Virus record (IMG/VR): IMGVR_UViG_2548876945_000010
Coordinates: 1 to 12,708 of that record
Origin: a virus
Taxonomy: Duplodnaviria; Heunggongvirae; Uroviricota; Caudoviricetes
Direction: 5' to 3' (one strand)
Length of the DNA: 12,708 nt
Part shown: positions 1 through 12,708 of the stretch, one piece after another
Layout: each line of letters starts with the position of its first letter
Position numbering within the stretch: the first letter of the stretch is position 1
The notes under the pieces: generated by a model
What the model saw: only the letters and a program-made list of their open reading frames with translations
The model's database searches: none
What the model was told of the DNA's origin: nothing
Translations under genes and position numbers: made by a program

Positions 1-996
1 TTATGGACGCATTATGGACATTCCTGACACCGGGTTAAGAGTCACAGCATCTTGTAAGAAATCCGGTGCAAAGTGTGCGTAGGTCATAGTTTGCTGAATG
101 TTAGAATGACCCAGGATGCGCTGCAATGTGATTATGTTACCTCCATTCATTATAAAATGTGTGGCAAATGTATGCCTCAAAACATGTACTGCTTGTCCGT
201 CAGGTAAATCGGGTTTTACTTCCCTGAGAGCGTTACGCACTTTGTAGTAACTGGCATTAAAAAGCCTGCCTGAATTTTTGGTCTTGATCCGTTTAATCAG
301 GTCCTGCGAAACGGGAATTGTCCTGCGTTTTCCGTTTTTAGTTTTCATAAACGTAACCATCTGGTTAATGATGTGTTCAGCTTTTAAATTAGACACTTCA
401 CTCCAGCGTCCACCAGTAGAAAGGCAGACCAGAGTTGCATTTAATTCATCACCATCAAGCATGGATAACAGCCGCGTAATCTCTTCACTGGACAAAAAAG
501 CCATTTCCGTAACAGCTTCACGTAACCGTTTAATCTCACGGAACGGGTTGTGGGAGTGGTATTCACCGGCGTCAATTAACTTGGTGAACATCCCGCTCAT
601 TATTGCCAGATGTCGATTTACGCTGGCTGGTTTTAGACCATCGTTCATCATTACAACGCGATAATCAGTTATCGTTTTCTTTGTTAGCTGGTCAGCTCTG
701 GACACTCCCATTTCTGCAAATTTGGCGATTATTGTCGTTAAACGCCCCCGTTCAATATCTCCACGCTCATGTGATTTTCCGTGATATATCCACCATCTAC
801 CTAACAACTCTGTAAGAGTTCGGCGGTCGGCTGGTTTCTCCAACCACTCTTTGTTGTGGTAGTTAACCAATACATGACGTTCGAATGCCTGAGCTTCACC
901 TTTAGTTTTAAATTTCCGCCTGATACGTTTTCCATCTGCACCCTGCGGTCTGACGTCCACTTCATAACGACCATCATCGAGCTTTTTAATAGACAT
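1..996 (-). CDS. int: tyrosine site-specific integrase (P2 Int-like)
   Basis: 331-aa ORF, ATG at 996..994, stop at 3..1. N-terminus MSIKKLDDGRYEVDVRP resembles P2-family integrases; C-terminal HVLRHTFATH ... LGHSNIQQTMTYAHF carries the His-x-x-Arg and catalytic Tyr motifs of tyrosine recombinases. GGAGGG Shine-Dalgarno lies upstream on the minus strand. Confidence 0.9.
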   Translation of the reverse strand: MSIKKLDDGRYEVDVRPQGADGKRIRRKFKTKGEAQAFERHVLVNYHNKEWLEKPADRRTLTELLGRWWIYHGKSHERGDIERGRLTTIIAKFAEMGVSRADQLTKKTITDYRVVMMNDGLKPASVNRHLAIMSGMFTKLIDAGEYHSHNPFREIKRLREAVTEMAFLSSEEITRLLSMLDGDELNATLVCLSTGGRWSEVSNLKAEHIINQMVTFMKTKNGKRRTIPVSQDLIKRIKTKNSGRLFNASYYKVRNALREVKPDLPDGQAVHVLRHTFATHFIMNGGNIITLQRILGHSNIQQTMTYAHFAPDFLQDAVTLNPVSGMSIMRP

Positions 997-1089
997 AAAG
1001 CCCTCCGATGACGCTGTTTACTTCTACTACTTGAAAATTAATGCAATTTTCTTTCGTACATTTACTACACACATATGCTGAATAAATCG

Positions 1090-1389
1090 TCAGCCAGTCT
1101 TCTGGTCTGAGTGGTGCAAGGTTGTTGAGTCTTGCCCAATGTGTGCGAGAGCCGGGGCTATTTGTCCAGCTGCTGGATCTGTTTCATCAAACATGAACCA
1201 GTCACGATACTTGCGAAAGCGTGGATGCTTAAACAGCTTCATACCTGCTTCCATAGGCATTTTTGATTTTCCTGATTCATATCCATGATATGTGTAGTAA
1301 TTAATTCCAATTAATTCAGCAAGTTCCTTAGTTTTAAGGCGTTCGGATTCACGGATGAGCTTTAGTTTCTCACTTTGTTCACTTGACAT
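1090..1389 (-). CDS. C: immunity repressor (P2 C-like)
   Basis: The ORF track starts at a TTG (1407); the in-frame ATG at 1389 gives 99 aa (MSSEQSEKLKLIRESERLKTKELAELIG...GQIAPALAHIGQ...HSDQKTG). Length and C-terminal GQIAPALAH..GQ....HSGQKTG pattern match my recollection of P2 C; it has an N-terminal HTH-like segment and a TATAAT/GGAG upstream. Confidence 0.8.
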   Translation of the reverse strand: MSSEQSEKLKLIRESERLKTKELAELIGINYYTYHGYESGKSKMPMEAGMKLFKHPRFRKYRDWFMFDETDPAAGQIAPALAHIGQDSTTLHHSDQKTG

Positions 1390-1497
1390 AATTTTGCTAA
1401 TCTCCAATTATATTGCTACTTGGCAATTTGTGATTCACTCAAAAAGGCTCTAGATGGCTCCAGTTGGTGAATCGCAAATCTTATGGAGGATAGCAAA
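1390..1497. promoter_or_regulatory. early genetic switch region between divergent C and cox (expected Pe/Pc promoters and C operators)
   Basis: About 100-bp AT-rich spacer between divergent repressor and cox ORFs. A perfect TATAAT reads on the minus strand at 1412..1407 upstream of the C start; on the plus strand TTGCTA (1394..1399) and TACTTG (1417..1422) are 17 bp apart. Operators were not identified with confidence. Confidence 0.4.
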
Positions 1498-1854
1498 GTG
1501 ACGACAAATGTAGAAATTTCTTGTCCAACTAGCGATGAGGCAAGTTTCGAAAATGAAGCCAAACGTAAAAGCATTCAGATTTCAGAGCGCCCATCTGATT
1601 TGCTGTCGAAAGAAGGTTTTGCTCTTTACATCGGTAAGACACCACGCGCGGTGGCTGAAATGGCTAAAGCAGGAAAGCTGCCAGCCTTCTACATGACAGA
1701 CCCATTAAAACCAAGAGGGAAAGCTGAATTATGGATTAATCGCCGTGAGTGGGACAAGTACGCAGCCCAACTGGTTGATGAAGCTCCGACAGAATGGCAT
1801 GACTGGAAAAATCGCATTAGTTACAGCAAATCAAGACATGGCCGTGCGGCTTAA
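1498..1854 (+). CDS. cox: Cox-like excisionase/transcriptional regulator with N-terminal extension
   Basis: Core FALYIGKTPRAVAEMAKAGKLPAFYMTDP resembles the P2 Cox HTH region (..GKLPVIDMTDP..). The ORF track starts at ATG 1483, but GGAGGA at 1485..1490 sits 7 nt before an in-frame GTG at 1498, so I call 1498 as start; 1483 remains possible. Confidence 0.6.
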   Translation: MTTNVEISCPTSDEASFENEAKRKSIQISERPSDLLSKEGFALYIGKTPRAVAEMAKAGKLPAFYMTDPLKPRGKAELWINRREWDKYAAQLVDEAPTEWHDWKNRISYSKSRHGRAA

Positions 1855-1864
1855 GGTGGAAAGG

Positions 1865-2035
1865 ATGAACGAGCCTCGTTGTATTGCTCAGTTATTGCGT
1901 AACGAAAGCCCCAGGGCGATTGACTTCACCATCACCCACGGTAAGGGGCGTAAGGGAATCATTATCCGCACCAAAAAACAGAGTCCGTTAAAAAAGGCTC
2001 TGACCTTTCTGAAAAGCCGGAGGGTATGGAAATGA
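1865..2035 (+). CDS. small hypothetical early protein (position of P2 orf78)
   Basis: ATG at 1865 preceded by AAGGTGGAAAGG, 56 aa; its stop TGA (2033..2035) overlaps the ATG at 2032 of the next gene (ATGA coupling). Call is positional only. Confidence 0.35.
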   Translation: MNEPRCIAQLLRNESPRAIDFTITHGKGRKGIIIRTKKQSPLKKALTFLKSRRVWK

Positions 2036-2532
2036 CAGTGATGACGCTCAATCTCGTTGAAAAACAGCCAGCAGCTATGCGCCGGATAATTGGCAAGCAT
2101 CTTGCCGTCCCTCGCTGGCAGGATACATGTGATTATTATAATCAGATGATGGAGCGCGAACGGCTAACGGTTTGCTTTCATGCACAGTTAAAACAGCGTC
2201 ACGCAACGATGCGTTTTGAAGAAATGAACGACGTCGAACGTGAACGACTGGTATGTGCAATTGATGAATTGCGTGGGGCATTCTCAAAACGCCGTCAGGT
2301 CGGTGCAAGTGAGTATGCATATATTAGCTTTTTAACTGTCAGTCAGCGCCGTACTTTATTTATGCATGCCGGATTGACTGAAAAAGAATTCAACCAGCCA
2401 TACTGGCGAATTAATGAAGAATCATGTTACTGGCGTGATGCCTTATTCCGTGCATTACGTGAATTATTCAGCCTGTTTGAGTATGCACCGACAATTCTGA
2501 CGTCGGTAAAACCAGAGCAATATCTGCATTAA
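2032..2532 (+). CDS. P2 gpB-like early replication protein (putative)
   Basis: About 166-aa ORF in the position and of the size of P2 B; GGAGGG lies 8 nt upstream of ATG 2032 (track start 2026 is too close to the SD). Function assigned by synteny and length only. Confidence 0.5.
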   Translation: MTVMTLNLVEKQPAAMRRIIGKHLAVPRWQDTCDYYNQMMERERLTVCFHAQLKQRHATMRFEEMNDVERERLVCAIDELRGAFSKRRQVGASEYAYISFLTVSQRRTLFMHAGLTEKEFNQPYWRINEESCYWRDALFRALRELFSLFEYAPTILTSVKPEQYLH

Positions 2533-2595
2533 GTAATTAACCAGAGTTTTTAACGCACTTAATTGTGCGGGGCTTCTTTTTGCCTGGAGAAAGTC

Positions 2596-2820
2596 ATGCA
2601 TACAGTTTCTGAAAATCAGTGCGGTAAATACGCATTACTGCTGCAACAGGCCAGAACCGAAGCACAGGCCGACGCAGCAACGCGCTTTTCTTCTCATCTT
2701 GACGCCATGATTCGCCACATCACAAAGGCGGAGTTATCCCGCGTAGAGATAGTCGAGCTGCTCAGTCAGGAGTCGGAAAAATTTCACAATATCGGATTGT
2801 CTCGCGGGGAGGTGCTTTGA
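2596..2820 (+). CDS. hypothetical early protein (position of P2 orf80)
   Basis: Track start 2563 is a TTG; ATG at 2596 is preceded by GGAGAAA. 74 aa, no recognisable motif. Confidence 0.5.
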
Positions 2821-3122
2821 TGTCCTGTTCTCGTTCAGTTGTATTACTGAATAACGCCTTAAAAATCACCGTTATGAAAAATGGCGATCTATCTCTTATT
2901 CAACTTGGTCTTGATAAAGAAAAACGCGAAATAACTGAGTCTGTTATCGCGATTTATCAGAACGAATTAAATCTCCTGTCTGATGTGGTCAATTTACTTG
3001 TTAAACGCGCTGTATTTCACAAGCAAATCTCCTCCGTGGATGAACTGACGAAATTAACGACAGAAATTGCCAGCTATTGCGCTGATGAATTTAAAAAACT
3101 TAACGACAAAAGGAGCTGGTAA
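2820..3122 (+). CDS. hypothetical early protein (position of P2 orf81)
   Basis: ATG 2820 overlaps the preceding stop (TGATG) with GAGGTG upstream; 100 aa; stop overlaps the next start (TAATG). Confidence 0.5.
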   Translation: MSCSRSVVLLNNALKITVMKNGDLSLIQLGLDKEKREITESVIAIYQNELNLLSDVVNLLVKRAVFHKQISSVDELTKLTTEIASYCADEFKKLNDKRSW

Positions 3123-3346
3123 TGCCGGACAACGTAGATTTTATTCAGGAACAACAGGCTGAATTACTGGAGCGTCAGATTAACGCGGCAAGGGTAAAAC
3201 ATTGCGGTGCTTCTGCGCTGGTTTGCGAAGAGTGTGACGCGCCAATACCTGCTGCCCGTCGTGCGGCTTATCCGTCAGCCACGCGTTGTGTTTCCTGCCA
3301 GTCAGTCTTTGAAGCAAAAAACAAGCATTACCGGAGAATGGCATGA
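3122..3346 (+). CDS. TraR/DksA-family C4 zinc-finger protein (position of P2 orf82)
   Basis: 74 aa with CxxC-(17)-CxxC (VCEECDAPIPAARRAAYPSATRCVSC) after a helical N-terminus, typical of the phage TraR/DksA zinc-finger family; AGGAG SD upstream. Confidence 0.75.
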   Translation: MPDNVDFIQEQQAELLERQINAARVKHCGASALVCEECDAPIPAARRAAYPSATRCVSCQSVFEAKNKHYRRMA

Positions 3347-3618
3347 GTATTCGTATCGAAATTGGCGAACGTTATGTCGTTACCAGTGACAGCTTTCAGT
3401 TTATTCTCCACGAGAAAAAGAGAGCGGAAAGCGGTAAAAACGCCGGTCAGGAATGGCTGGCGGTGGTTGGTTATTACCCGAAATTAAGCCAGCTCGTTTC
3501 CGGCCTGATGCATCACGATATTCTGACCGGAAGCGCAAAGTCTTTTGCTGATTTAAACGCGCAGGTTGAGCAACTCAGCAGGCGTTGTTCAGAGGCTTTT
3601 GGCTCATATGGCCGTTAA
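3343..3618 (+). CDS. hypothetical early protein (position of P2 orf83)
   Basis: ATG 3343 overlaps the previous stop (ATGA); 91 aa; 3' end overlaps the start of gene A. Confidence 0.5.
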   Translation: MSIRIEIGERYVVTSDSFQFILHEKKRAESGKNAGQEWLAVVGYYPKLSQLVSGLMHHDILTGSAKSFADLNAQVEQLSRRCSEAFGSYGR

Positions 3619-5779
3619 AGCCTCCGGGCGTTTTGTCCCTCCGTCAGCATTTGCCGCAGGCACCGGTAAGACGTTTGCCGGTGCTTATGCATGGAACGCG
3701 CCACGCGAGGCTGTCGGGCGCGAAAGACCCCTTACACGTGATGAGATGCGTCAGGTGCAAGGTGTTTTATCCACGATTAACCGCCTGCCTTACTTTTTGC
3801 GCTCGCTGTTTACTTCACGCTATGACTACATCCGGCGCAATAAAAGCCCGGTACACGGGTTTTATTTCCTCACATCCACTTTTCAGCGTCGTTTATGGCC
3901 GCGCATTGAGCGCGTGAATCAGCGCCATGAAATGAACACCGACGCGTCGTTGCTGTTTCTGGCAGAGCGCGACCAGTATGCGCGCCTGCCGGGGATGAAT
4001 GACAAGGAGCTGAAAAAGTTTGCCGCCCGTATCTCATCACAGCTTTTCATGATGTATGAGGAACTCTGCGATGCCTGGGTGGATGCGCATGGCGAGAAAG
4101 AATCGCTGTTTACGGATGATGCGCAGGCTCACCTCTATGGTCATGTTGCTGGCGCTGCACGTGCTTTCAATATTTCCCCGCTTTACTGGAAAAAATACCG
4201 TAAAGGACAGATGACCACGAGGCAGGCATATTCTGCAATTGCTCGTCTGTTTAACGATGAGTGGTGGACTCATCAGCTTAAAGGCCAGCGTATGCGCTGG
4301 CATGAAGCGTTACTGATAGCTGTCGGGGAGGTCAATAAAGACCGTTCTCCTTATGCCAGTAAACACGCCATTCGTGATGTGCGTGCGCGCCGCCAGGCAA
4401 ATCTGGAATTTCTTAAATCGTGTGACCTTGAAAACAGGGAAACCGGCGAGCGCATCGACCTTATCAGTAAGGTGATGGGCAGTATTTCTAATCCTGAAAT
4501 TCGCCGGATGGAGCTGATGAACACCATTGCCGGTATTGAGCGTTACGCCGCCGCAGAGGGTGATGTGGGGATGTTTATCACGCTGACCGCGCCGTCAAAG
4601 TATCACCCGACACGTCAGGTCAGAAAAGGCGAAAGTAAAACCGTTCAGCTTAATCACGGCTGGAACGATGAGGCATTTAATCCAAAGGATGCGCAGCGTT
4701 ATCTCTGCCGCATCTGGAGCCTGATGCGCACGGCATTCAAGGATAATGATTTACAGGTCTACGGTTTGCGTGTCGTCGAGCCACACCACGACGGAACGCC
4801 GCACTGGCATATGATGCTTTTTTGTAATCCACGCCAGCGTAACCAGATTATTGAAATCATGCGTCGCTACGCGCTCAAAGAGGATGGCGACGAAAGAGGA
4901 GCTGCGCGAAACCGTTTTCAGGCAAAACACCTTAACCGGGGCGGTGCTGCGGGGTATATCGCAAAATACATCTCAAAAAACATCGATGGCTATGCACTGG
5001 ATGGTCAGCTCGATAATGATACCGGCAGGCCGCTGAAAGATACTGCTGCGGCTGTTACCGCATGGGCGTCAACGTGGCGAATTCCGCAATTTAAAACGAT
5101 TGGCCTGCCGACAATGGGGGCTTACCGTGAACTACGCAAATTGCCTCGCGGCGTCAGTATTGCTGATGAGTTTGACGAACGCGTCGAGGCTGCTCGCGCT
5201 GCCGCAGACAGTGGTGATTTTGCGTTGTATATCAGCGCGCAGGGTGGGGCAAATGTCCCGCGCGATTGTCAGACTGTCAGGGTTGCCCGTAGCCCGTCGG
5301 ATGACGTTAACGAGTACGAGGAAGAAGTCGAGAGAGTGGTCGGCATTTACGCGCCGCATCTCGGCGCGCGTCATATTCATATCACCAGAACGACGGACTG
5401 GCGCATTGTGCCGAAAGTTCCGGTCGTTGAGCCTTTGACTTTAAAAAGCGGCATCGCCGCGCCTCGGAGTCCTGTCAATAACTGTGGAAAGTTCACCGGC
5501 GGTGACGTTCCGGTTATGCACCCTACACCGTCTGAGCATGCCGCAGCGGTGTTAAATCTGGTTGATAGTGGTGTTATCGGATGGGATGACCCGGAAGTTG
5601 TGACGGTGCTCAGGAGTGCATTAAAACATGGTGCACCGAGACCGAATTGGCAACAAAGAAACTGCGAACCATTAAAACCGTACCAGATAGCGCCATCAGG
5701 GCGGATGACAAAGGCTGAACGTTCGCAGATTCCACGCATCCATTTCGAGCTGGCACTAATTGGTAAAACCTATCAATAG
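3608..5779 (+). CDS. A: rolling-circle replication initiator endonuclease (P2 gpA-like, HUH superfamily)
   Basis: Large ORF; I place the start at ATG 3608 (MAVKASGRFVPP..., as I recall P2 A) rather than the track ATG 3566. It has an HUH-like motif PHWHMMLF (His codons 4802..4810) and the paired-tyrosine motif GYIAKYISK (Tyr codons 4955..4957 and 4967..4969), similar to phiX174 gpA YxxKY. Confidence 0.85.
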   Translation: MAVKASGRFVPPSAFAAGTGKTFAGAYAWNAPREAVGRERPLTRDEMRQVQGVLSTINRLPYFLRSLFTSRYDYIRRNKSPVHGFYFLTSTFQRRLWPRIERVNQRHEMNTDASLLFLAERDQYARLPGMNDKELKKFAARISSQLFMMYEELCDAWVDAHGEKESLFTDDAQAHLYGHVAGAARAFNISPLYWKKYRKGQMTTRQAYSAIARLFNDEWWTHQLKGQRMRWHEALLIAVGEVNKDRSPYASKHAIRDVRARRQANLEFLKSCDLENRETGERIDLISKVMGSISNPEIRRMELMNTIAGIERYAAAEGDVGMFITLTAPSKYHPTRQVRKGESKTVQLNHGWNDEAFNPKDAQRYLCRIWSLMRTAFKDNDLQVYGLRVVEPHHDGTPHWHMMLFCNPRQRNQIIEIMRRYALKEDGDERGAARNRFQAKHLNRGGAAGYIAKYISKNIDGYALDGQLDNDTGRPLKDTAAAVTAWASTWRIPQFKTIGLPTMGAYRELRKLPRGVSIADEFDERVEAARAAADSGDFALYISAQGGANVPRDCQTVRVARSPSDDVNEYEEEVERVVGIYAPHLGARHIHITRTTDWRIVPKVPVVEPLTLKSGIAAPRSPVNNCGKFTGGDVPVMHPTPSEHAAAVLNLVDSGVIGWDDPEVVTVLRSALKHGAPRPNWQQRNCEPLKPYQIAPSGRMTKAERSQIPRIHFELALIGKTYQ

Positions 5780-5882
5780 TGATTTAATGAAATTTCGGAG
5801 TCATAAATATTGTGTATTTAACTAGATGATTGCAATATAAGTGCTTATTATTTATGCGATTATAGCCATAACGGAGCTGAGT

Positions 5883-6812
5883 ATGAGTGTTGCAAGGCAT
5901 CATCATTTTTTATCCCAATGTTATTTGAAAGGGTTTACAAGTAATGGGGGGAAAAAATCAAAATTAACTGTAATAGATTTAAAGGAGCGCAAAACCTTTG
6001 AGAGTAATACTCGCAATGTCGGGGGGGTTAGAGATTTCAACCGATTAGAATTGGATGGAGTTGACCCAAACTATCTCGAGAGTTCTCTTGCAGAGTTTGA
6101 AGGCAGTGTCGCTACTCATTTAAGAAAACTTGAGGAGGGGGGCGAGTTTTCAGGCGAAACCAAAGATGTTATTCTGGAGTTTATTTCCTTATTGGCAATA
6201 CGTACGCCTGCTCAGCGAGAACATTTATCATCTCCATTGAAACAAATAGCAAAGTTTATCATGAAATCCTCAGTTAGTTCGGCTGAGCGTTGGGACGATT
6301 GCAAATTAGCTTATGAGAAAGAAATGGGTGAGTCTTTGCCATATGATCTCGCTTACGAAAAAATTAAAAATTTTGTGGATGGGGATAATTTCGAAATCAA
6401 TGTAATCAGAGAGTTCATGATAGATATGGAAATGAAATGTGTACCTGTTATCACCAAGTTGTTGCATCAACGCAACTGGTCTCTTATGACCATATCTGAT
6501 GGGCAAGGGTCATTTATAACTTCAGATAACCCAGTTTGCTTAATGTGGACTAATCCTGAATTAGCACGAGGCCCTTATTCCCCCGGGTTTGGTGTAAAAG
6601 ACACTTTAGTTTTGTTCCCAGTATCAAAAAACCTTCTTTTGGCGGGCGAGTTTGATGGTCATGAGGGTGTATTCAGTTGTAATGAGGAGCAGGCTGCGGT
6701 CTTCAATACTTCAGTCATTCGGCATACCGCAGAAAGAATATTTTCATCTAATGATAATTTCAAATTTTTAGACTCATCTAAAAAAATGAAGCAAGGCAAA
6801 AGCCTGGTTTGA
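5883..6812 (+). CDS. AT-rich cargo gene at the P2 tin/old hotspot; DUF4238-like candidate anti-phage defence protein
   Basis: 309-aa ORF from ATG 5883 (GGAG upstream; the track GTG at 5841 is less likely). N-terminus MSVARHHHFLSQCYLKGF fits the HHxxxQxYLKxF signature I associate with DUF4238. Strongly AT-rich unlike the flanking phage genes, and located between the A stop and cos. Confidence 0.65.
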   Translation: MSVARHHHFLSQCYLKGFTSNGGKKSKLTVIDLKERKTFESNTRNVGGVRDFNRLELDGVDPNYLESSLAEFEGSVATHLRKLEEGGEFSGETKDVILEFISLLAIRTPAQREHLSSPLKQIAKFIMKSSVSSAERWDDCKLAYEKEMGESLPYDLAYEKIKNFVDGDNFEINVIREFMIDMEMKCVPVITKLLHQRNWSLMTISDGQGSFITSDNPVCLMWTNPELARGPYSPGFGVKDTLVLFPVSKNLLLAGEFDGHEGVFSCNEEQAAVFNTSVIRHTAERIFSSNDNFKFLDSSKKMKQGKSLV

Positions 6813-6949
6813 TAGCGGTTTTTCTATGATTTTACTAGGAGAATTCTACCCTTAATCAGTGTGTTTAAAATGATTAATTGTCATAACATTTTTTCATTTT
6901 TAGGTGTGCCTAGAAATGCATTCAATTGCATGCGTTTTCCTCCCCTGTT

Positions 6950-7093
6950 GCGTCTGAGCGCCACCAGTGCCGGCGCGCCTCCGGTGTATTCGTGCACCTG
7001 CATTAAAACCGACCCATAAAGCGGGCAGGCGAGGCGGGGAAAGCACTGCGCGCTGGCGGTGGTGCTGATTTTATTTTTTCAGCGTCTGAGCGC
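6950..7093. repeat. 12-bp direct repeat GCGTCTGAGCGC flanking cos (6950..6961 and 7082..7093)
   Basis: Exact 12-bp copies lie 67 bp upstream and 36 bp downstream of the cohesive-end sequence; possible terminase recognition elements. Confidence 0.4.
7028..7046. other. cos: cos cohesive-end site (P2-type 19-nt GGCGAGGCGGGGAAAGCAC)
   Basis: Exact match to the P2 19-nt cohesive end as I recall it, in the expected place about 170 bp from the 3' end of portal gene Q. Confidence 0.75.
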
Positions 7094-7188
7094 GTCGTGG
7101 CGGCGTTTAGATTTTGCGCCGGGGCGTTGCTGTGTCTGCGGGCTGTTTTGTGCGGTGGTGAGCGTGTGAGGGCGTGATGACTGGGTGT

Positions 7189-7210
7189 AAAAAAGCCGCC
7201 CGCAGGCGGC
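7189..7210 (-). terminator. intrinsic terminator downstream of Q (end of leftward P-Q operon)
   Basis: On the minus strand: GCCGCC-TGCG-GGCGGC hairpin (7210..7195) followed by TTTTTT (7194..7189), starting 5 nt after the Q stop codon. Confidence 0.6.
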
Positions 7211-7215
7211 GATGT

Positions 7216-8250
7216 TCAGCCGTTGTCAGTGTCCAGTGAGTAGTTTTTAAAGCGGATGACCTCCTGACCGAGCCAGCCGTTTATCTCGCGGATCCTGTCC
7301 TGTAACGGGATAAGCTCATTGCGGACAAAGACCTTTGCCACTTTCTCAATATCACCCAGCGACCCGACGTTCTCCGGCTTGCCGCCCATCAACTGAAAGG
7401 GGATGCGGTGCGCGTCCAGCAGGTCAGCGGCGCTGGCTTTTTTGATATTAAAAAAATCGTCCTTCGTTGCCACTTCACTGAGCGGGATAATTTTAATGCC
7501 GTCGGCTTTTCCCTGCGGGGCATAGAGAAACAGATTTTTAAAGTTGTTGCGGCCTTTCGACTTGACCATGTTTTCGCGAAGCATTTCGATATCGTTGCGA
7601 TCCTGCACGGCATCAGTGACGTACATGATGTATCCGGCATGTGCGCCGTTTTCGTAATACTTGCGGCGGAACAGCGTGGCTGACTCATTCAGCCAGGCAG
7701 AGTTAAGGGCGCTGAGATATTCCGGCATGCCGTACAGCTCCTGATTAATATCCGGCTCCAGCAGATGAAACACGGAGCCGGGCGCGAAAGGTGTCGGCTC
7801 GTTGAAGGACGGCACCCACCAGTAAACATCCTCCTCCACGCCACGGCGGGTATATTTTGCCGGTGAGGTTTCCAGTCTGATGACCTTACCGGTGGTGCTG
7901 TAACGCTTTTCCAGAAACGCATTACCGAACACCAGAAAATCCAGCGCAAAGCGGCTGAAATCCTGCTGGGAAAGCCACGGATGCGGGATAAATGTCGAGG
8001 CCAGAATATTACGTTTGACGTAAATCGGTGAGCTGTGATGCACGGCAGCACGCAGGCTTTTTGCCAGACCGGTAAAGCTGACCGGTGGCTCATACCATCT
8101 GCCGTTACTGATGCACTCGACGTAATCCAGAATGTCACGGCGGTCGAGTACCGGCACCGGCTCGCCAAAGGTGAATGCTTCCATTTTCGGGGCGTTGGCG
8201 GTCATTTTTTTTGCCGCAGGTTGCGGTGTTTTCCCTTTTTTCTTGCTCAT
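7216..8250 (-). CDS. Q: portal protein (P2 gpQ-like)
   Basis: 344-aa ORF, ATG at 8250..8248 with GGAG upstream, stop 7218..7216. Length equals P2 Q and it sits next to cos and the terminase gene; its start overlaps the P stop (TGATG). Confidence 0.9.
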   Translation of the reverse strand: MSKKKGKTPQPAAKKMTANAPKMEAFTFGEPVPVLDRRDILDYVECISNGRWYEPPVSFTGLAKSLRAAVHHSSPIYVKRNILASTFIPHPWLSQQDFSRFALDFLVFGNAFLEKRYSTTGKVIRLETSPAKYTRRGVEEDVYWWVPSFNEPTPFAPGSVFHLLEPDINQELYGMPEYLSALNSAWLNESATLFRRKYYENGAHAGYIMYVTDAVQDRNDIEMLRENMVKSKGRNNFKNLFLYAPQGKADGIKIIPLSEVATKDDFFNIKKASAADLLDAHRIPFQLMGGKPENVGSLGDIEKVAKVFVRNELIPLQDRIREINGWLGQEVIRFKNYSLDTDNG

Positions 8251-9311
8251 CAGTAAAACTCCAGAATGGTGGATGTCAGCGGGGTGCTGATACCGGCGGT
8301 GAGTGGCTCATTTAACAGGGCGTGCATGGTCGCCCAGGCGAGGTCGGCGTGGCTGGCTTCCTCGCTGCGGCTGGCCTCATAGGTGGCGCTGCGCCCGCTG
8401 CTGGTCATGGTCTTGCGGATAGCCATAAACGAGCTGGTGATGTCGGTGGCGCTGACGTCATATTCCAGACAGCCACGGCGGATAACGTCTTTTGCCTTGA
8501 GCACCATTGCGGTTTTCATTTCCGGCGTGTAGCGGATATCACGCGCGGCGGGATAGAACGAGCGCACGAGCTGGAACACGCCGACACCGAGGCCGGTGGC
8601 ATCAATACCGATGTATTCGACGTTATATTTTTCGGTGAGTTTGCGGATGGATTCCGCCTGGGTGGCAAAGTCCATACCTTTCCACTGGTGACGCTCAAGT
8701 ATTCTGAATTTGCCACCGGCCACCACCGGCGGTGCCAGTACCACGCATCCGGCGCTGTCGCCACGGTGTGACGGGTCGTAACCAATCCATACCGGTCGGG
8801 AGCCGAACGGATTTGCGGCAAACGGCGCATAGTCTTCCCATTCTTCCAGCGTGTCGACCATGCAGCGTTGCAGCTCCTCGAACGGGAATACCGATGCCTT
8901 GTCATCAACAAATTCACACATGAACAGGTTTTTAAAATCGTCGGCGCTGTTTTCGCGTTTAAGCTGCTCAATGTCGAACAATGTGCAGCCACCTTTCAGG
9001 GCGTCCTCAATGGTGACAATCTGCCGCCACTGGCCGTCCGCACAGAGAAGACCTCCGGCAAGGGCGTTATGACTGACGTCGATTTCCACGCGTTCGGCGG
9101 CGCTGGCGCGTCCCCGGTTGAACAGTTCACCTGACCAGAACGGGTAGGCGTCGTGCGCCAGCGTGGACGGGGTGGAGAAATAGGTCGAGCGCAGGTGACT
9201 CTGTGAGGCCATACCTGATGCCACCTTACGCAGTACCTGAAAAGCCGCGCTGCATCGTGAGTCAAATCTGATGAAGACCTTTGCGCTACAGGGCGACACG
9301 CTTGACGCCAT
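8250..9311 (-). CDS. P: terminase large subunit (P2 gpP-like), C-terminal portion only; N-terminal ATPase region apparently missing
   Basis: 353-aa ORF directly upstream of and coupled to Q. Contains VWIGYDPSHRGDSAGCVVL, like the start of a terminase nuclease domain; no Walker A (GxxxxGKT/S) is present. P2 P is about 590 aa as I recall, and the first ~15-20 codons of this ORF overlap the X gene on the opposite strand so are probably not P-derived. Confidence 0.6.
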   Translation of the reverse strand: MASSVSPCSAKVFIRFDSRCSAAFQVLRKVASGMASQSHLRSTYFSTPSTLAHDAYPFWSGELFNRGRASAAERVEIDVSHNALAGGLLCADGQWRQIVTIEDALKGGCTLFDIEQLKRENSADDFKNLFMCEFVDDKASVFPFEELQRCMVDTLEEWEDYAPFAANPFGSRPVWIGYDPSHRGDSAGCVVLAPPVVAGGKFRILERHQWKGMDFATQAESIRKLTEKYNVEYIGIDATGLGVGVFQLVRSFYPAARDIRYTPEMKTAMVLKAKDVIRRGCLEYDVSATDITSSFMAIRKTMTSSGRSATYEASRSEEASHADLAWATMHALLNEPLTAGISTPLTSTILEFY

Positions 9312-9474
9312 TTGTGTCCGGTATTACGGGCGCACTGAGGGCGTGGTTGAGACCGTGCTCGCCGCAAATCCGGGACTGGCTGAACTGGGTGCGGTGCTGC
9401 CACACGGCACCGCCGTCGAACTGCCCGACGTTCAGACCGCGCCCGTGGCTGAAACTGTCAATCTGTGGGAGTAA
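9271..9474 (+). CDS. X: tail protein X (P2 gpX-like, LysM-like)
   Basis: 67 aa, MKTFALQGDTLDAICVRYYGRTEGVVETVLAANPGL..., matching P2 X in length and sequence as recalled; immediately precedes the holin. Confidence 0.8.
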   Translation: MKTFALQGDTLDAICVRYYGRTEGVVETVLAANPGLAELGAVLPHGTAVELPDVQTAPVAETVNLWE

Positions 9475-9477
9475 CGC

Positions 9478-9759
9478 ATGACAGCAGAAGAAAAAAGCGT
9501 CCTGTCGCTTTTCATGATTGGGGTGCTGATTGTTGTCGGCAAGGTGCTTGCCGGTGGTGAACCCATCACCCCGCGTCTGTTTATCGGGCGCATGTTGCTC
9601 GGTGGTTTTGTCTCGATGGTTGCCGGTGTTGTTCTGGTGCAGTTTCCTGACCTGTCACTGCCTGCGGTGTGCGGTATCGGCTCCATGCTGGGTATCGCCG
9701 GTTATCAGGTGATTGAGATTGCCATTCAGCGCCGCTTTAAGGGTAGGGGGAAACCGTAA
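9478..9759 (+). CDS. Y: holin (P2 gpY-like)
   Basis: 93 aa with hydrophobic transmembrane segments (LSLFMIGVLIVVGKVLAGG, LLGGFVSMVAGVVLV, GIGSMLGIAGY) and a charged C-terminal tail; stop overlaps the K start (TAATG). Confidence 0.8.
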   Translation: MTAEEKSVLSLFMIGVLIVVGKVLAGGEPITPRLFIGRMLLGGFVSMVAGVVLVQFPDLSLPAVCGIGSMLGIAGYQVIEIAIQRRFKGRGKP

Positions 9760-10256
9760 TGCCGGTTATTAACACGCATCAGAATATCGCCGCCTTTCTC
9801 GACATGCTGGCCGTGTCCGAAGGGACGGCAAACCATCCGCTGACGAAAAACCGGGGCTATGACGTGATAGTCACCGGACTGGACGGGAAGCCGGAAATTT
9901 TCACCGACTACAGTGACCACCCGTTCGCACATGGCCGACCGGCGAAGGTGTTTAACCGTCGCGGTGAAAAATCCACGGCCTCCGGTCGCTATCAGCAGCT
10001 TTACCTGTTCTGGCCGCATTACCGCAAACAGCTTGCCCTGCCGGATTTCAGTCCGTTGTCACAGGACAGACTTGCCATTCAGTTGATCCGCGAACGCGGT
10101 GCACTGGATGACATCCGGGCGGGACGCATTGAGCGAGCCATTTCACGCTGTCGCAATATCTGGGCGTCCCTGCCGGGTGCCGGTTACGGTCAGCGTGAGC
10201 ATTCACTGGAAAAACTGGTCACCGTCTGGCGTACCGCTGGCGGCGTACCGGCTTAA
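9759..10256 (+). CDS. K: endolysin (P2 gpK, lambda R-like lytic transglycosylase/lysozyme)
   Basis: 165 aa; FLDMLAVSEGT...GYDVIV...FTDYSDHP...SGRYQ...GALDDIRAGRIERAISRCRNIWASLPGAGYGQ closely parallels lambda R (FLDMLAWSEGTD...IWASLPGAGYGQ) as I recall it. Confidence 0.9.
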   Translation: MPVINTHQNIAAFLDMLAVSEGTANHPLTKNRGYDVIVTGLDGKPEIFTDYSDHPFAHGRPAKVFNRRGEKSTASGRYQQLYLFWPHYRKQLALPDFSPLSQDRLAIQLIRERGALDDIRAGRIERAISRCRNIWASLPGAGYGQREHSLEKLVTVWRTAGGVPA

Positions 10257-10270
10257 ACGGAGTAAACACC

Positions 10271-10696
10271 ATGAAGAAATTATCCCTTTCACTGATGCTG
10301 AACGTGTCGCTGGCGCTGATGCTGGCACTGTCCCTGATTTACCCGCAGAGCGTGGCCGTCAATTTTGTCGCCGCCTGGGCGATTCTGGCGACGGTTATCT
10401 GTGTGGTTGCCGGTGGTGTCGGCGTGTATGCCACTGAGTATGTGCTGGAACGCTACGGGCGGGAGCTGCCGCCGGAATCGCTGGCCGTGAAGATTGTCAC
10501 GTCGCTGTTTTTGCAGCCGGTGCCGTGGCGCAGACGGGCGGTGGCTCTGGTGGTGATGGTGGCGACGTTTATCTCGCTGGTCGCTGCCGGGTGGATTTTT
10601 ACCGCGCTGATTTATCTCGTGGCGTCGGTGTTCTTCCGGCTGATACGTACGGCCTGCCGTCAGCGTTTTGAGGGGCGGGAACCATGTCAAAGCTGA
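10271..10696 (+). CDS. lysA: LysA-like membrane protein (lysis timing)
   Basis: 141 aa with several hydrophobic helices; position and length match P2 lysA. Confidence 0.7.
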   Translation: MKKLSLSLMLNVSLALMLALSLIYPQSVAVNFVAAWAILATVICVVAGGVGVYATEYVLERYGRELPPESLAVKIVTSLFLQPVPWRRRAVALVVMVATFISLVAAGWIFTALIYLVASVFFRLIRTACRQRFEGREPCQS

Positions 10697-11109
10697 TGAT
10701 TGTGATGGTTGTGCTGTTATCGCTGGCGGTGGCGGGGCTGTTTCTGGTGAAGCATGAAAACGCCAGCCTGCGCGCCTCGCTGGACAGGGCGAACAACGTC
10801 GCCAGCGGGCAGCAGACGACCATCACCATGCTGCAAAATCAGCTTCATGTTGCCATCACCAGGGCAGACAAAAACGAGCTGGCGCAGGTGGCACTGCGTC
10901 AGGAACTGGAGAACGCCGCGAAGCGTGAAGCACAGCGCGAGAAAACCATCACGAGGTTACTTAATGAAAACGAAGATTTTCGCCGCTGGTACGGTGCTGA
11001 CCTGCCTGATGCTGTGCGCCGGTTGCACCAGCGCCCCGCCTGCACTGACGCCAGTGATTGTCGCCAACGCCTGCCCGAAAGTGAGCCTTTGCCCGATGCC
11101 GGGCAGTGA
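10684..11109 (+). CDS. lysB: LysB, Rz-like inner-membrane spanin
   Basis: 141 aa; N-terminal TM helix (LMIVMVVLLSLAVAGLFLV) followed by a charged, predicted coiled-coil region; contains the embedded +1-frame lysC gene. Confidence 0.75.
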   Translation: MSKLMIVMVVLLSLAVAGLFLVKHENASLRASLDRANNVASGQQTTITMLQNQLHVAITRADKNELAQVALRQELENAAKREAQREKTITRLLNENEDFRRWYGADLPDAVRRLHQRPACTDASDCRQRLPESEPLPDAGQ

Positions 11110-11152
11110 CCCGCAGACGAACGGCGATTTAAGTGCCGATAAGCGGAATTAA
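10964..11152 (+). CDS. lysC: LysC, Rz1-like outer-membrane lipoprotein spanin
   Basis: 62-aa ORF starting inside lysB in another frame; signal peptide plus lipobox (MKTKIFAAGTVLTCLMLCAGC) and a Pro-rich mature part. Confidence 0.7.
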   Translation: MKTKIFAAGTVLTCLMLCAGCTSAPPALTPVIVANACPKVSLCPMPGSDPQTNGDLSADKRN

Positions 11153-11414
11153 AACGGCCAGCGTGACGGCTTCTGATTCTGTTACTGCCACGGTGCCGGT
11201 GGTCATGGTGAAAGCATCAACCCGCGTCACCCTGGACACACCGGAGGTGGTCTGCACCAACAGGCTGATTACCGGCACGCTGGAAGTGCAGAAGGGCGGG
11301 ACGATGCGCGGCAACATTGAACACACCGGCGGTGAACTCTCATCAAACGGTAAGGTACTGCATACCCATAAACACCCCGGTGACAGTGGCGGCACAACAG
11401 GGGGACCTCTATGA
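11153..11414 (+). pseudogene. V: remnant of baseplate spike gene V (C-terminal fragment only)
   Basis: Only about 260 bp separate lysC from W, where P2 has R, S and V (about 1.5 kb). The ORF ends ...NGKVLHTHKHPGDSGGTTGGPL, which I tentatively recognise as a gpV-type His-rich C-terminal apex, and its stop overlaps the W start (ATGA). Confidence 0.4.
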
Positions 11415-11758
11415 CAGCGCGTTATCTCGGAATGAATCGCAGTGATGGCCTGACTGTCACTGACCTTGAGCATATCAGCCAGAGTATCGGCGATATCCTG
11501 CGCACACCGGTCGGCTCACGGGTGATGCGTCGTGATTACGGCTCGTTGCTGGCGTCAATGATTGACCAGCCGCAGACCCCGGCGCTTGAGTTGCAGATTA
11601 AAGTCGCCTGTTACATGGCAGTGCTGAAATGGGAACCCCGCGTCACCCTGTCATCCGTCACCACGGCGCGCAGTTTTGACGGGCGAATGACGGTCACGTT
11701 AACCGGCCAGCACAACGACACCGGCCAGCCACTTTCGTTAACCATCCCTGTGAGTTGA
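11411..11758 (+). CDS. W: baseplate wedge protein W (gp25-like)
   Basis: 115 aa (same as P2 W), MTARYLGMNRSDGLTVTDLEHISQSIGDILRTPVGSRVMRRDYGS..., a GPW/gp25-family pattern. Confidence 0.85.
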   Translation: MTARYLGMNRSDGLTVTDLEHISQSIGDILRTPVGSRVMRRDYGSLLASMIDQPQTPALELQIKVACYMAVLKWEPRVTLSSVTTARSFDGRMTVTLTGQHNDTGQPLSLTIPVS

Positions 11759-11762
11759 AACC

Positions 11763-11897
11763 ATGCCGATTATCGACCTGAACCAGCTACCCGCACCGGA
11801 TGTGGTCGAGGAGCTGGACTTTGAAACCATTCTTGCTGAACGCAAGGCGACACTGATTTCCCTTTACCGAATACAGCGTCGTGACCGGAGGCTCTGA
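11763..11897 (+). pseudogene. J: baseplate protein J, internally deleted/truncated (44 codons)
   Basis: ATG 11763 encodes MPIIDLNQLPAPDVVEELDFETILAERKATLISLY... (J-like N-terminus) but stops at 11895..11897, overlapping the I start (TGATG); P2 J is about 302 aa as recalled. Below the ORF-track length cutoff, found by reading. Confidence 0.5.
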
Positions 11898-12508
11898 TGA
11901 GTGATTCGCGACTGCTGCCGACCGGCTCATCACCGCTTGAAGTCGCTGCCGCAAAAGCCTGTGCGGAAATTGAAAAAACGCCGGTCAGTATTCGTGAGCC
12001 GTGGAACCCGGACACCTGCCCGGCAAATCTGCTGCCGTGGCTGGCGTGGTCATTTTCGGTTGACCGCTGGGATGATAAGTGGCCGGAAGCGACAAAACGC
12101 GCTGTTATCCGCGATGCGTATTTCATTCACTGCCATAAGGGCACTATAGGCGCAATCCGGCGTGTGGTGGAGCCGCTCGGCTATCTGATTGAGGTGAGGG
12201 AGTGGTGGCAGCTCAACGAGGAGCCGGGGACGTTCCGGATCGTTGTTGGCGTGCTTGAGCAGGGTATTACCGAGGAAATGTATCAGGAGCTGGAGCGCCT
12301 CGTTGCTGATGCAAAACCGGCAAGCCGCCATCTGACGGGACTGGCTATCAGTTTAAGTACAACCGGCAACATTTTTGCCGGTGCGGAATGCTATCACGGT
12401 GACGCCCTGACGGTTTATCCCTACACCCCGGAGGCCATTATTGTCGGAGGGGATTATTTCCCGGCCTCGGCCATTCATTTAATTGATAACCTGAGAGTAA
12501 ACGCATGA
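11897..12508 (+). CDS. I: baseplate assembly protein I
   Basis: 203-aa ORF, MSDSRLLPTGSSPLEVAAAKACAEIEKTPVSIREPWNPDTCPANLLPWLAWSFSVDRWDD..., in the P2 I position; stop overlaps the H start (ATGA). Confidence 0.8.
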   Translation: MSDSRLLPTGSSPLEVAAAKACAEIEKTPVSIREPWNPDTCPANLLPWLAWSFSVDRWDDKWPEATKRAVIRDAYFIHCHKGTIGAIRRVVEPLGYLIEVREWWQLNEEPGTFRIVVGVLEQGITEEMYQELERLVADAKPASRHLTGLAISLSTTGNIFAGAECYHGDALTVYPYTPEAIIVGGDYFPASAIHLIDNLRVNA

Positions 12509-12708
12509 CAGTGAAATACTACGCCATTCTGACTAATCAGGGCGCAGCACGGCTGGCTAACGCGACGATGCTCGGCAGTAAGCTGAATCTGACGCAAATG
12601 GCCGTTGGTGATGCGAATGGTGTCTTGCCGACACCAGACCCGGCACAGACAAAACTGATTAACCAGAAACGCATCGCGCTGAACCGCCCCGGGAATCCTG
12701 GAGACTAA
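12505..12708 (+). CDS. H: tail fibre protein H, N-terminal segment only (ORF stops after 67 codons at the window end)
   Basis: N-terminus ...TQMAVGDANGVLPTPDPAQTKLI resembles the conserved tail-fibre N-terminal domain (P2 H ...TTMAVGDGGGKLPVPDAGQTGLI). P2 H is about 669 aa, but here a TAA at 12706..12708 ends the frame. Confidence 0.6.
   Translation: MTVKYYAILTNQGAARLANATMLGSKLNLTQMAVGDANGVLPTPDPAQTKLINQKRIALNRPGNPGD

Follow-up and report, generated by a model that had tools for sequence, protein, structure and literature searches.

In P2-type phages, the repressor C is expressed during lysogeny, the replication initiator A acts in cis, and monomeric circles are the form of DNA that is packaged. 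P4 is a primase-type replicon that exploits its helper with the aid of sid, psu, delta and epsilon, and R-type pyocins are not known to retain replication or integration genes. P2 also packages DNA that carries cos and is supplied in trans, most efficiently when the size of this DNA matches the P2 or the P4 genome (PMC9942202). Prophage Sp13 of Escherichia coli O157:H7 Sakai is a P2-like element that keeps the integration, regulation and replication genes, lacks the head and packaging genes and most of the other morphogenetic genes, has a gene similar to epsilon of P4, and is inducible by mitomycin; other prophages help it to be excised, replicated and packaged (Asadulghani et al. 2009, PMC2669165). 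The A-Q hotspot of P2-like prophages lies next to cos, and cloning of a DUF4238 gene taken from it confers strong T7 resistance (Rousset et al., 10.1101/2021.01.21.427644). Here, we have analysed a stretch of 12,708 nucleotides, positions 1 to 12,708 of the Caudoviricetes record IMGVR_UViG_2548876945_000010, which is referred to as the window. The window likely represents the left 12.7 kb of a pro483-type P2-like (Peduovirus) prophage at pflA/pflB in a rare clone of E. coli. The element is probably an ordinary P2-type prophage in early decay, and the recency of the damage, rather than any special function, is the simplest explanation for why its genes look intact.

A P2-like prophage with three internal deletions

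The initial annotation of the window described a defective P2-like element, and comparison with intact relatives agrees with this description. In a megablast search, Escherichia phage pro483 covered 100% of the window with 98.2% identity, and the complete E. coli chromosomes GPEC1209, GPEC1210 and PE144 covered it with 99.6-99.9% identity. In each of these three chromosomes, the 12.7-kb query was stretched over approximately 19.9 kb in four pieces. As reference we used the intact P2-like prophage of E. coli GPEC1209 (locus L001), while P2 (NC_001895), to which the window aligns in colinear BLAST blocks of 87-98% identity, was used for annotated sites. The window consists of four blocks that are colinear with the GPEC1209 prophage and separated by three internal deletions (Table 1). 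The blocks are 99.6-100% identical to GPEC1209, except the block that contains V', W and J', which is 98.2% identical, and the final 29 bases have no match in the GPEC1209 prophage. Both ends of the window coincide exactly with stop codons, that of int at the start and that of an open reading frame (ORF) of 67 amino acids (aa) at the end. The GC content steps from 40-47% in the early region and the cargo (1-7000) to 54-61% in the late genes (7000-12708).

The first deletion takes codons 1-259 of P, the P-O intergenic region, O, N, M, and L except its last 28 nucleotides. The second takes the 3' end of lysC, the attenuator, R, S, the terminator tO, orf30, the activator site and start of the promoter pV, and codons 1-119 of V, and the third takes codons 36-289 of J, with a shift of the reading frame. 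The capsid, scaffold, small-terminase and baseplate losses that had been noted initially are all confirmed, as N, O and M are gone and V and J are mostly deleted. The truncation of the large terminase had been missed: P' starts at residue 260, past the stretch SRQIGAT in the lost segment, which by analogy with other large terminases is presumably a Walker-A-like motif. Translations compared with those of P2 and GPEC1209 identify P', LysC', V', J' and H' as gene fragments. Set against the gene set of an autonomous phage, P, L, V, J, H and lysC are cut, O, N, M, R and S are gone, and the promoters pP, pO and pV are gone as well.

The chance of finding microhomologies of 2, 2 and 4 bp at the three junctions under random joining is approximately 4e-4 by our own estimate. 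This pattern suggests that three illegitimate deletions with short microhomologies took out the head and packaging module, the tail-completion genes and part of the baseplate, and that the same events removed three of the four Ogr-dependent late promoters. An IS-mediated or IEE-type origin of the deletions (IS, insertion sequence) was considered, but there is no evidence for it, as no junction touches an IS or contains IS sequence. The V'-W-J' block (11142-11868) is 1.8% divergent from GPEC1209, whereas the adjoining blocks have 0-3 mismatches, which implies that the immediate parent had a different baseplate segment. The edges of this divergent patch appear to be hidden inside deletions 2 and 3.

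The insertion sequence in H and the right half of the element

The 29 bases at the end of the window belong to an IS3-family element located in the tail-fibre gene H. In a 5.0-Mb contig (GCA_974499335.1, locus L003), the full copy of 1310 bp has the terminal inverted repeats TGAACCGCCCCGGG...CCCGGGGCGGTTCA, a 3-bp target duplication (CGC), and two ORFs of 108 aa (orfA, HTH_Tnp_1) and 295 aa (orfB, rve). The copy is 99.8% identical to sequences labelled “IS3 family transposase” on many E. coli plasmids, and related copies have been given the label “IS1203 family” by PGAP; we take the end sequence to be IS629/IS1203-like. Past the IS, the contig continues with the rest of H, G, the invertase, FI, FII, E, T, U and D, which are colinear with the GPEC1209 prophage and 99.8% identical to it. 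A homology search with the right-hand fragment of H identified a “partial” protein of 377 aa, the length left when 58 of 435 residues are removed, on contigs that begin exactly at the breakpoint. One such contig (L058) contains D, ogr (72 aa) with its terminator, and an attR region that does not differ from that of the GPEC1209 prophage, followed by pflB. The remaining tail genes, ogr and the att sites, which had been proposed as a check, were in this way sought outside the window, and the rest of H, G to D, ogr and attR were recovered beyond the IS.

Pieced together from L003 (one contig, through D) and L058 (through ogr, attR and pflB), the whole element would have the layout attL-int...H'::IS::'H...ogr-attR at pflA/pflB and a size of approximately 23.9 kb, compared with approximately 29.8 kb for the intact relative. 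With this right half, the order of the genes is that of P2, int-C-cox-B-A / cos / Q-P / O...S / V...G / F...D-ogr.

The contig AIBB01000025.1 (GCA_000446585.2, L046) is the same as the window over positions 9263-12708, including a private single-nucleotide polymorphism at 12000, and stops 26 bp past the window end; this contig is probably the source of the window. The window end is the point where the short-read assembly broke at the IS. In another locus (L045, with 18 similar places), deletion 3 is present and H is uninterrupted, with a sequence that diverges from position 12615 onward. Since a deleted form without the IS exists, the IS insertion is secondary and marks a sub-lineage, in which it would have arisen later than the deletions.

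Integration, immunity and replication genes

The genes int, C, cox and A had been annotated as apparently intact, and this holds to the nucleotide: the genes for Int, C, Cox, orf78, B, orf80-82, A and the DUF4238 protein have zero nucleotide differences from GPEC1209. The first block contains 3 differences from GPEC1209 in 9243 bp (1424, 3581 and 8349), two of which are the common allele. Position 1424 is intergenic and the only difference in the switch region; its window allele, C, is found in eight of nine relatives. Position 3581 is a non-synonymous difference of one residue in the orf83-like gene, with the window allele in 32,150 index blocks, and position 8349 lies in P'.

The divergence from the intact relative is thus approximately 3e-4 per site in the early region, a time scale on which chance point mutations would have disabled almost no gene, and the intact state of the ORFs is therefore uninformative as to selection. 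The genes for Int, Cox, B and A with its origin (ori), and also cos, are structurally intact, presumably because there has been too little time for point mutations to accumulate, and we infer that their retention is neutral.

The domains Int_N and Phage_integrase were identified by Pfam in a protein identical to the window integrase, and this type of int adjoins pflA in 10 of 10 places. The GPEC1209 prophage has a direct repeat of 13 bp, ACCAATAACTGAC, at L001 positions 14898-14910, within the 5' end of pflA, and at 44858-44870, past ogr. This repeat, some 90 bp beyond the window, is a candidate for the att core, in which case the phage would replace the first codons of pflA. In A, 60 of 61 bases around the annotated nick site of P2 are identical to P2. 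No LexA box was found, and the repressor is of the non-SOS P2 kind. An Rfam scan identified no RNA families in the window, and PADLOC gave no further matches among the small early ORFs.

Late genes, lysis cassette and promoters

The late genes of P2 are annotated with four Ogr-activated promoters, three of which are deleted in this element. Their loss is deduced from the annotated P2 sites, since the starts of pP and pO with their shared activator site, and the activator site and start of pV, fall within the deleted P2 intervals. Q and P' have thereby lost pP, the genes X, Y, K, lysA and lysB have lost pO, and W and I have lost pV. The portal gene Q is retained at full length, as had been stated, but its native promoter was lost with deletion 1. 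A holin-endolysin-spanin cassette described as complete is so only in part: the coding sequences of Y, K, LysA and LysB are intact, while LysC is truncated and the promoter is lost.

A consensus scan identified no sigma-70-like site on the plus strand between 6364 and 12708. Several terminator-like hairpins follow cos, and the antisense strand of P' and Q lies upstream of X. Because pO is lost and no consensus promoter is present, we infer that the lysis genes are silent, and neither the resident Ogr nor that of a helper would be expected to turn them on. A scan for the late activator motif TGT-N12-ACA gave 0 matches in the window and was discarded, as the annotated sites of P2 itself were also unmatched.

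With these losses, the element should no longer be able to make virions, and lysis of the cell by its holin and endolysin is probably not possible without pO. Derepression could plausibly lead to excision and replication of the prophage by Cox, Int, B and A, but self-packaging and lysis would not follow.

Table 1. Features of the window, deletion junctions, and blocks colinear with the intact GPEC1209 prophage (L001)
Feature	Position	Strand	Details
Block 1	1-9243		L001 15001-24243; 3 mismatches
Block 2	9244-11141		L001 28511-30408; 0 mismatches
Block 3	11142-11868		L001 32595-33321; 13 mismatches
Block 4	11869-12679		L001 34089-34899; 2 mismatches
Junction 1	9243/9244		4262-bp deletion (P2 2215-6479); microhomology AA (2 bp)
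Junction 2	11141/11142		2184-bp deletion (P2 8380-10665); microhomology TA (2 bp)
Junction 3	11868/11869		760-bp deletion (P2 11398-12157); microhomology TACC (4 bp)
Integrase, 331 aa	1..996	-	Full length; no nucleotide difference from WP_000023390.1 (GPEC1209)
Immunity repressor C, 99 aa	1090..1389	-	No nucleotide difference from GPEC1209 helix-turn-helix (HTH) regulator; position of C in P2
Pc/Pe switch region, C to cox	1390..1482	.	One difference from GPEC1209
Cox, excision/switch protein, 123 aa	1483..1854	+	Pfam Phage_Cox; identical protein in many complete prophages
Early genes	1865..3618	+	Synteny with P2 orf78, B, orf80-83; 95% DNA identity; Pfam domains
orf78-like	1865-2035	+
B	2032-2532	+
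DUF2732	2596-2820	+
DUF5405	2820-3122	+
TraR/DksA zinc finger	3122-3346	+
DUF5405 (orf83-like)	3343-3618	+
Replication initiator A, 723 aa	3608..5779	+	Pfam Phage_GPA; ori nick site ~5466
DUF4238 defence cargo, 309 aa	5883..6812	+	A-Q hotspot, between A (ends 5779) and cos (7028); ~40% GC
cos, 19 nt, GGCGAGGCGGGGAAAGCAC	7028..7046	.	Exact match to cosL and cosR of P2 NC_001895
tQ terminator hairpin	7195..7210	-	Downstream of Q; terminator scan; aligns with annotated P2 tQ
Portal Q, 344 aa	7216..8250	-	Full length; promoter pP deleted
P'	8250..9243	-	C-terminal 331 codons of 590-aa large terminase; aa 1-259 lost (alignment to P2 gpP)
X	9271-9474	+	Intact, identical to GPEC1209; Pfam and PGAP names; pO gone
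Holin Y	9478-9759	+	As for X
Endolysin K	9759-10256	+	As for X
LysA	10271-10696	+	As for X
LysB	10684-11109	+	As for X
LysC', truncated outer spanin	10964..11152	+	59 native aa + KRN, stop; 62 vs 96 aa (compared with P2, GPEC1209)
V', baseplate spike	11142..11414	+	C-terminal 90 codons; called as 69-aa ORF from 11205; Pfam Phage_spike
W, 115 aa	11411..11758	+	Intact; Pfam GPW_gp25
J'	11763..11897	+	35 native codons + 9 frameshifted residues across junction 3 = 44 aa
I, 203 aa	11897..12508	+	Intact; Pfam Tail_P2_I
H'	12505..12708	+	58 native tail-fibre codons + 9 IS-encoded codons + stop = 67 aa
IS3-family element	12680..12708	+	First 29 bp of 1310 bp; full copy in L003

The cos site and the DUF4238 cargo

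The site annotated as a canonical cos has the exact 19-nucleotide sequence of P2, and its flanks are also conserved, over approximately 30 bp to the left and more than 150 bp to the right. The neighbouring gene, which had been described as a defence-type cargo, is indeed of this type: the encoded protein matches the PADLOC model DUF4238-Pers over residues 1-309 of 309 (E = 1.5e-219; Pfam PF14022), and on this basis is assigned to the known DUF4238 defence family. Genes annotated in P2 that are analogous to this cargo are old, tin and fun. The allele in the window is present in 2254 index blocks, mostly complete prophages. Both the DUF4238 gene and the repressor gene C, as genes expressed in lysogeny, are probably still working, and C would then provide immunity to homoimmune P2-like phages.

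The cargo at the A-Q position varies among sister prophages with the same type of int, C and cox. In a set of loci with the same Int, repressor, Cox and pflA site (L048-L057 and L032-L041), the cargos include a PAPS reductase with a methyltransferase, and a reverse transcriptase. Other cargos at this position are AAA_13 and AAA_15/21 ATPases, DUF7380, an S8 peptidase with an AAA protein, and a cytolethal distending toxin (L014).

Occurrence of the deleted form

The deletions recur in other assemblies. Locus L005 is colinear with the window over 2505-12708 with 2 mismatches, and identical junctions are also found in L003, L006, L007, L009 and L010. The assemblies that contain them are independent and come from NCBI, Logan (SRA runs) and ENA (metagenome), including the 5.0-Mb contig. 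In these collections, the 44-aa J' protein was identified on 30 contigs and the 69-aa V' protein on 31, each of which carries the label E. coli, with strain H383 (GCA_002110225.1) among them. An exact look-up of the 67-aa H' protein gave 22 contigs, and the H'::IS form was counted on 12 contigs, all E. coli. The deleted form is rare, with J' on 30 contigs compared with the 2254 index blocks for its DUF4238 allele. A search of 5426 complete RefSeq E. coli genomes with the H'::IS junction (200-bp query) and with the whole window identified neither the junction nor a colinear copy, and exact 30-mers spanning junctions 1 and 3 had 0 matches in GTDB representative genomes, JGI metagenome contigs and IMG/VR. 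Every right flank that was seen is pflB. The left flank was sought with the exact P' (320 aa), orf83-like DUF5405, DUF4238 and Cox proteins, each of which is common to hundreds to thousands of other P2-like prophages, and no returned place was of the deleted form.

Members of the deleted lineage differ from each other in patches. L006, which was seen in nine samples, has all three junctions but also a patch of 2.1 kb with 60 substitutions in A (window 3175-5314). The donor of this patch was sought among the compared loci, where the best match was only 98.6% identical. The patches in A (L006) and H (L045) appear to be derived by recombination from other P2-like phages, that in A by gene conversion. 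L007 contains 28 extra bases between I and H' (approximately 8014-8039), either an insertion or a duplication. Two metagenome contigs, L008 (1-2308) and L011 (1-932), have the identical H'::IS fusion on a backbone that is approximately 2% divergent in I, and that of L008 also has a full-length J (301 aa). These contigs reflect either a hot spot in H for IS3-family insertion, or recombination that has moved the IS-bearing H segment from one P2-like prophage to another or restored J.

Probable recent decay and alternative explanations

Of the two functional readings proposed in the initial annotation, selection by the host or packaging via cos as a helper-dependent element, the sequence decides for or against neither, and the lysis genes are not a preserved module. 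We consider decay the probable explanation. Other P2-like prophages have also been deleted. In L037 (14270-17008), an independent deletion derivative, only a 260-aa ORF lies between P and the genes U, D and ogr, and L012 (3842-11456) is a scrambled remnant of a P2-like prophage. To judge from these loci, P2-like prophages appear often to decay through large internal deletions.

Three points weigh against recent decay of a prophage at pflA/pflB as described here. All four lesions are located in late genes and none in the early, immunity or defence genes, a pattern that is compatible with selection. The attL and the left chromosomal flank of the deleted lineage were not seen. The silence of the lysis genes is deduced from the loss of pO and the lack of consensus promoters. 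As for the first point, late genes make up approximately three quarters of the genome, and the chance that all lesions fall in them is approximately 0.3 by our own estimate, which is not statistically unusual.

The best surviving alternative, although we regard it as unlikely, is that the element is a domesticated remnant, in which selection on the host keeps the repressor immunity and the DUF4238 gene and perhaps favours the loss of virion and lysis functions; this overlaps with decay. Domestication of defective prophages is reportedly a general phenomenon, as described by Bobay, Touchon and Rocha in PNAS in 2014. In addition to the location of the lesions, it would be consistent with the wild-type state of C and the switch region and with the strong T7 resistance provided by a cloned member of the DUF4238 family (10.1101/2021.01.21.427644). 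However, a divergence of approximately 3e-4 per site leaves no power to detect purifying selection, the lesion pattern is within chance expectation, and the lysis genes are not kept as a working unit, with pO lost and LysC truncated.

Considerably less probable is a helper-dependent element, either cosmid-like or an incipient satellite, which, once derepressed, would be excised by Int and Cox and replicated by A and B from its ori, after which its circle would be cleaved at cos and packaged with the terminase, capsid and tail of a P2-like phage that is co-resident or superinfecting. The genes int, cox, B, A with ori, and ogr are intact, as are cos and attR, and both the packaging in trans of cos-bearing DNA by P2 (PMC9942202) and the excision, replication and packaging of Sp13, a defective P2-like prophage without head genes (PMC2669165), speak for the idea in principle. 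P2-like prophages were found in 2031 of the 5426 complete E. coli genomes (37%), in up to five places per genome, and helpers should therefore be common. The patches in A and H likewise show contact with other P2-like phages. However, there are no genes of the satellite type, as every ORF is a P2 gene, a P2 fragment or hotspot cargo, and no helper-redirecting or helper-activating genes (sid, psu, delta, epsilon or equivalents) were identified among the ORFs of the window. The dead fragments P', V', J', H' and lysC' have been kept, and a size of approximately 24 kb fits neither the P2 nor the P4 capsid optimum. The repressor is of the non-SOS P2 type without a LexA box, and no epsilon- or tum-like gene was found between B and A, so that a helper would not derepress the element unless its Cox or antirepressor cross-reacts. 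With a repressor of this type, mitomycin C alone would also be expected to leave the element uninduced. With A acting in cis and monomeric circles as the packaged form, the element would first have to excise and replicate by itself, and a copy still under repression would not be mobilised by a helper alone. The rarity of the deleted form and the presence of pflB at every right flank also argue against mobilisation. We find it very improbable that the element is a transmissible helper-dependent derivative, an incipient large P2 satellite that spreads its repressor and DUF4238 gene between E. coli strains via a heteroimmune helper, with the patches in A and H as traces of this process, and we give an adapted satellite-like lifestyle only a slim chance.

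A tailocin-like domesticated tail, consisting of a P2-type contractile tail and lysis cassette without a head, would agree with the loss of the head genes and with the remaining coding sequences for sheath, tube, tape measure, U, D and lysis, but is almost certainly wrong, as the deletions have taken R, S and the greater part of both V and J along with pO and pV, H is split by the IS, int, A and cos are retained, and the lack of baseplate, spike and tail-completion genes appears already to contradict it. It is equally implausible that the deletions are artefacts of assembly or extraction and that the true prophage is complete, a possibility that had been named initially: the deleted form is absent from the complete RefSeq E. 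coli genomes and its junction 30-mers from GTDB, JGI and IMG/VR, but the same junctions recur in approximately 30 independent contigs of E. coli, in assemblies that differ in project and technology, 2-4 bp of microhomology is too short to mislead a k-mer assembler, and the junction-spanning J' and V' proteins have been deposited many times independently, which effectively refutes this explanation.

Early decay of an ordinary P2-type prophage thus remains our preferred explanation. Its significance is low beyond bookkeeping. The element is a clean and datable example of how short-microhomology deletions and an IS disable a P2-like prophage with its immunity and defence genes untouched. Through such remnants, the host keeps repressor immunity and DUF4238, a validated anti-phage gene, and P2-like phages that enter the cell can acquire sequence from them. 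Packaging by a helper, if demonstrated, would extend the observation made for Sp13 in Sakai to another lineage and introduce no new principle.

Comparison with known systems

The hotspot system with DUF4238 described by Rousset et al. is similar to that of the window in its full-length match to the model and in its position between gpA and cos/gpQ, with no notable difference. P4 and the engineered P2/P4 cosmids have a P2-type cos in common with the element and rely on P2 late proteins for packaging. P4 is 11.6 kb in size and contains helper-exploitation genes, whereas the element is approximately 24 kb and contains none of them. Nor is it compact and free of structural genes, as a satellite would be, since Q, X, W, I, G, FI, FII, E, T, U and D are present in these approximately 24 kb, in addition to the fragments.

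Sp13 appears to be the closest functional precedent for dependence on a helper. In contrast to Sp13, the present element keeps most of the tail genes and has neither an epsilon- or tum-like gene nor a LexA box. The two are not the same element, as no complete O157 genome contains the one described here.

The most similar elements are pro483 and the GPEC1209 prophage, which have the same gene order, the same int/C/cox immunity type, a 723-aa A, DUF4238, cos and the pflB-side site. The identity to the GPEC1209 prophage is 99.9%, and the difference from both consists of the 7.2 kb missing in three pieces and the 1310-bp IS in H. By the features that define satellites and tailocins, the element would belong to neither group, and its sequence identifies it as a defective derivative of a pro483-type Peduovirus.

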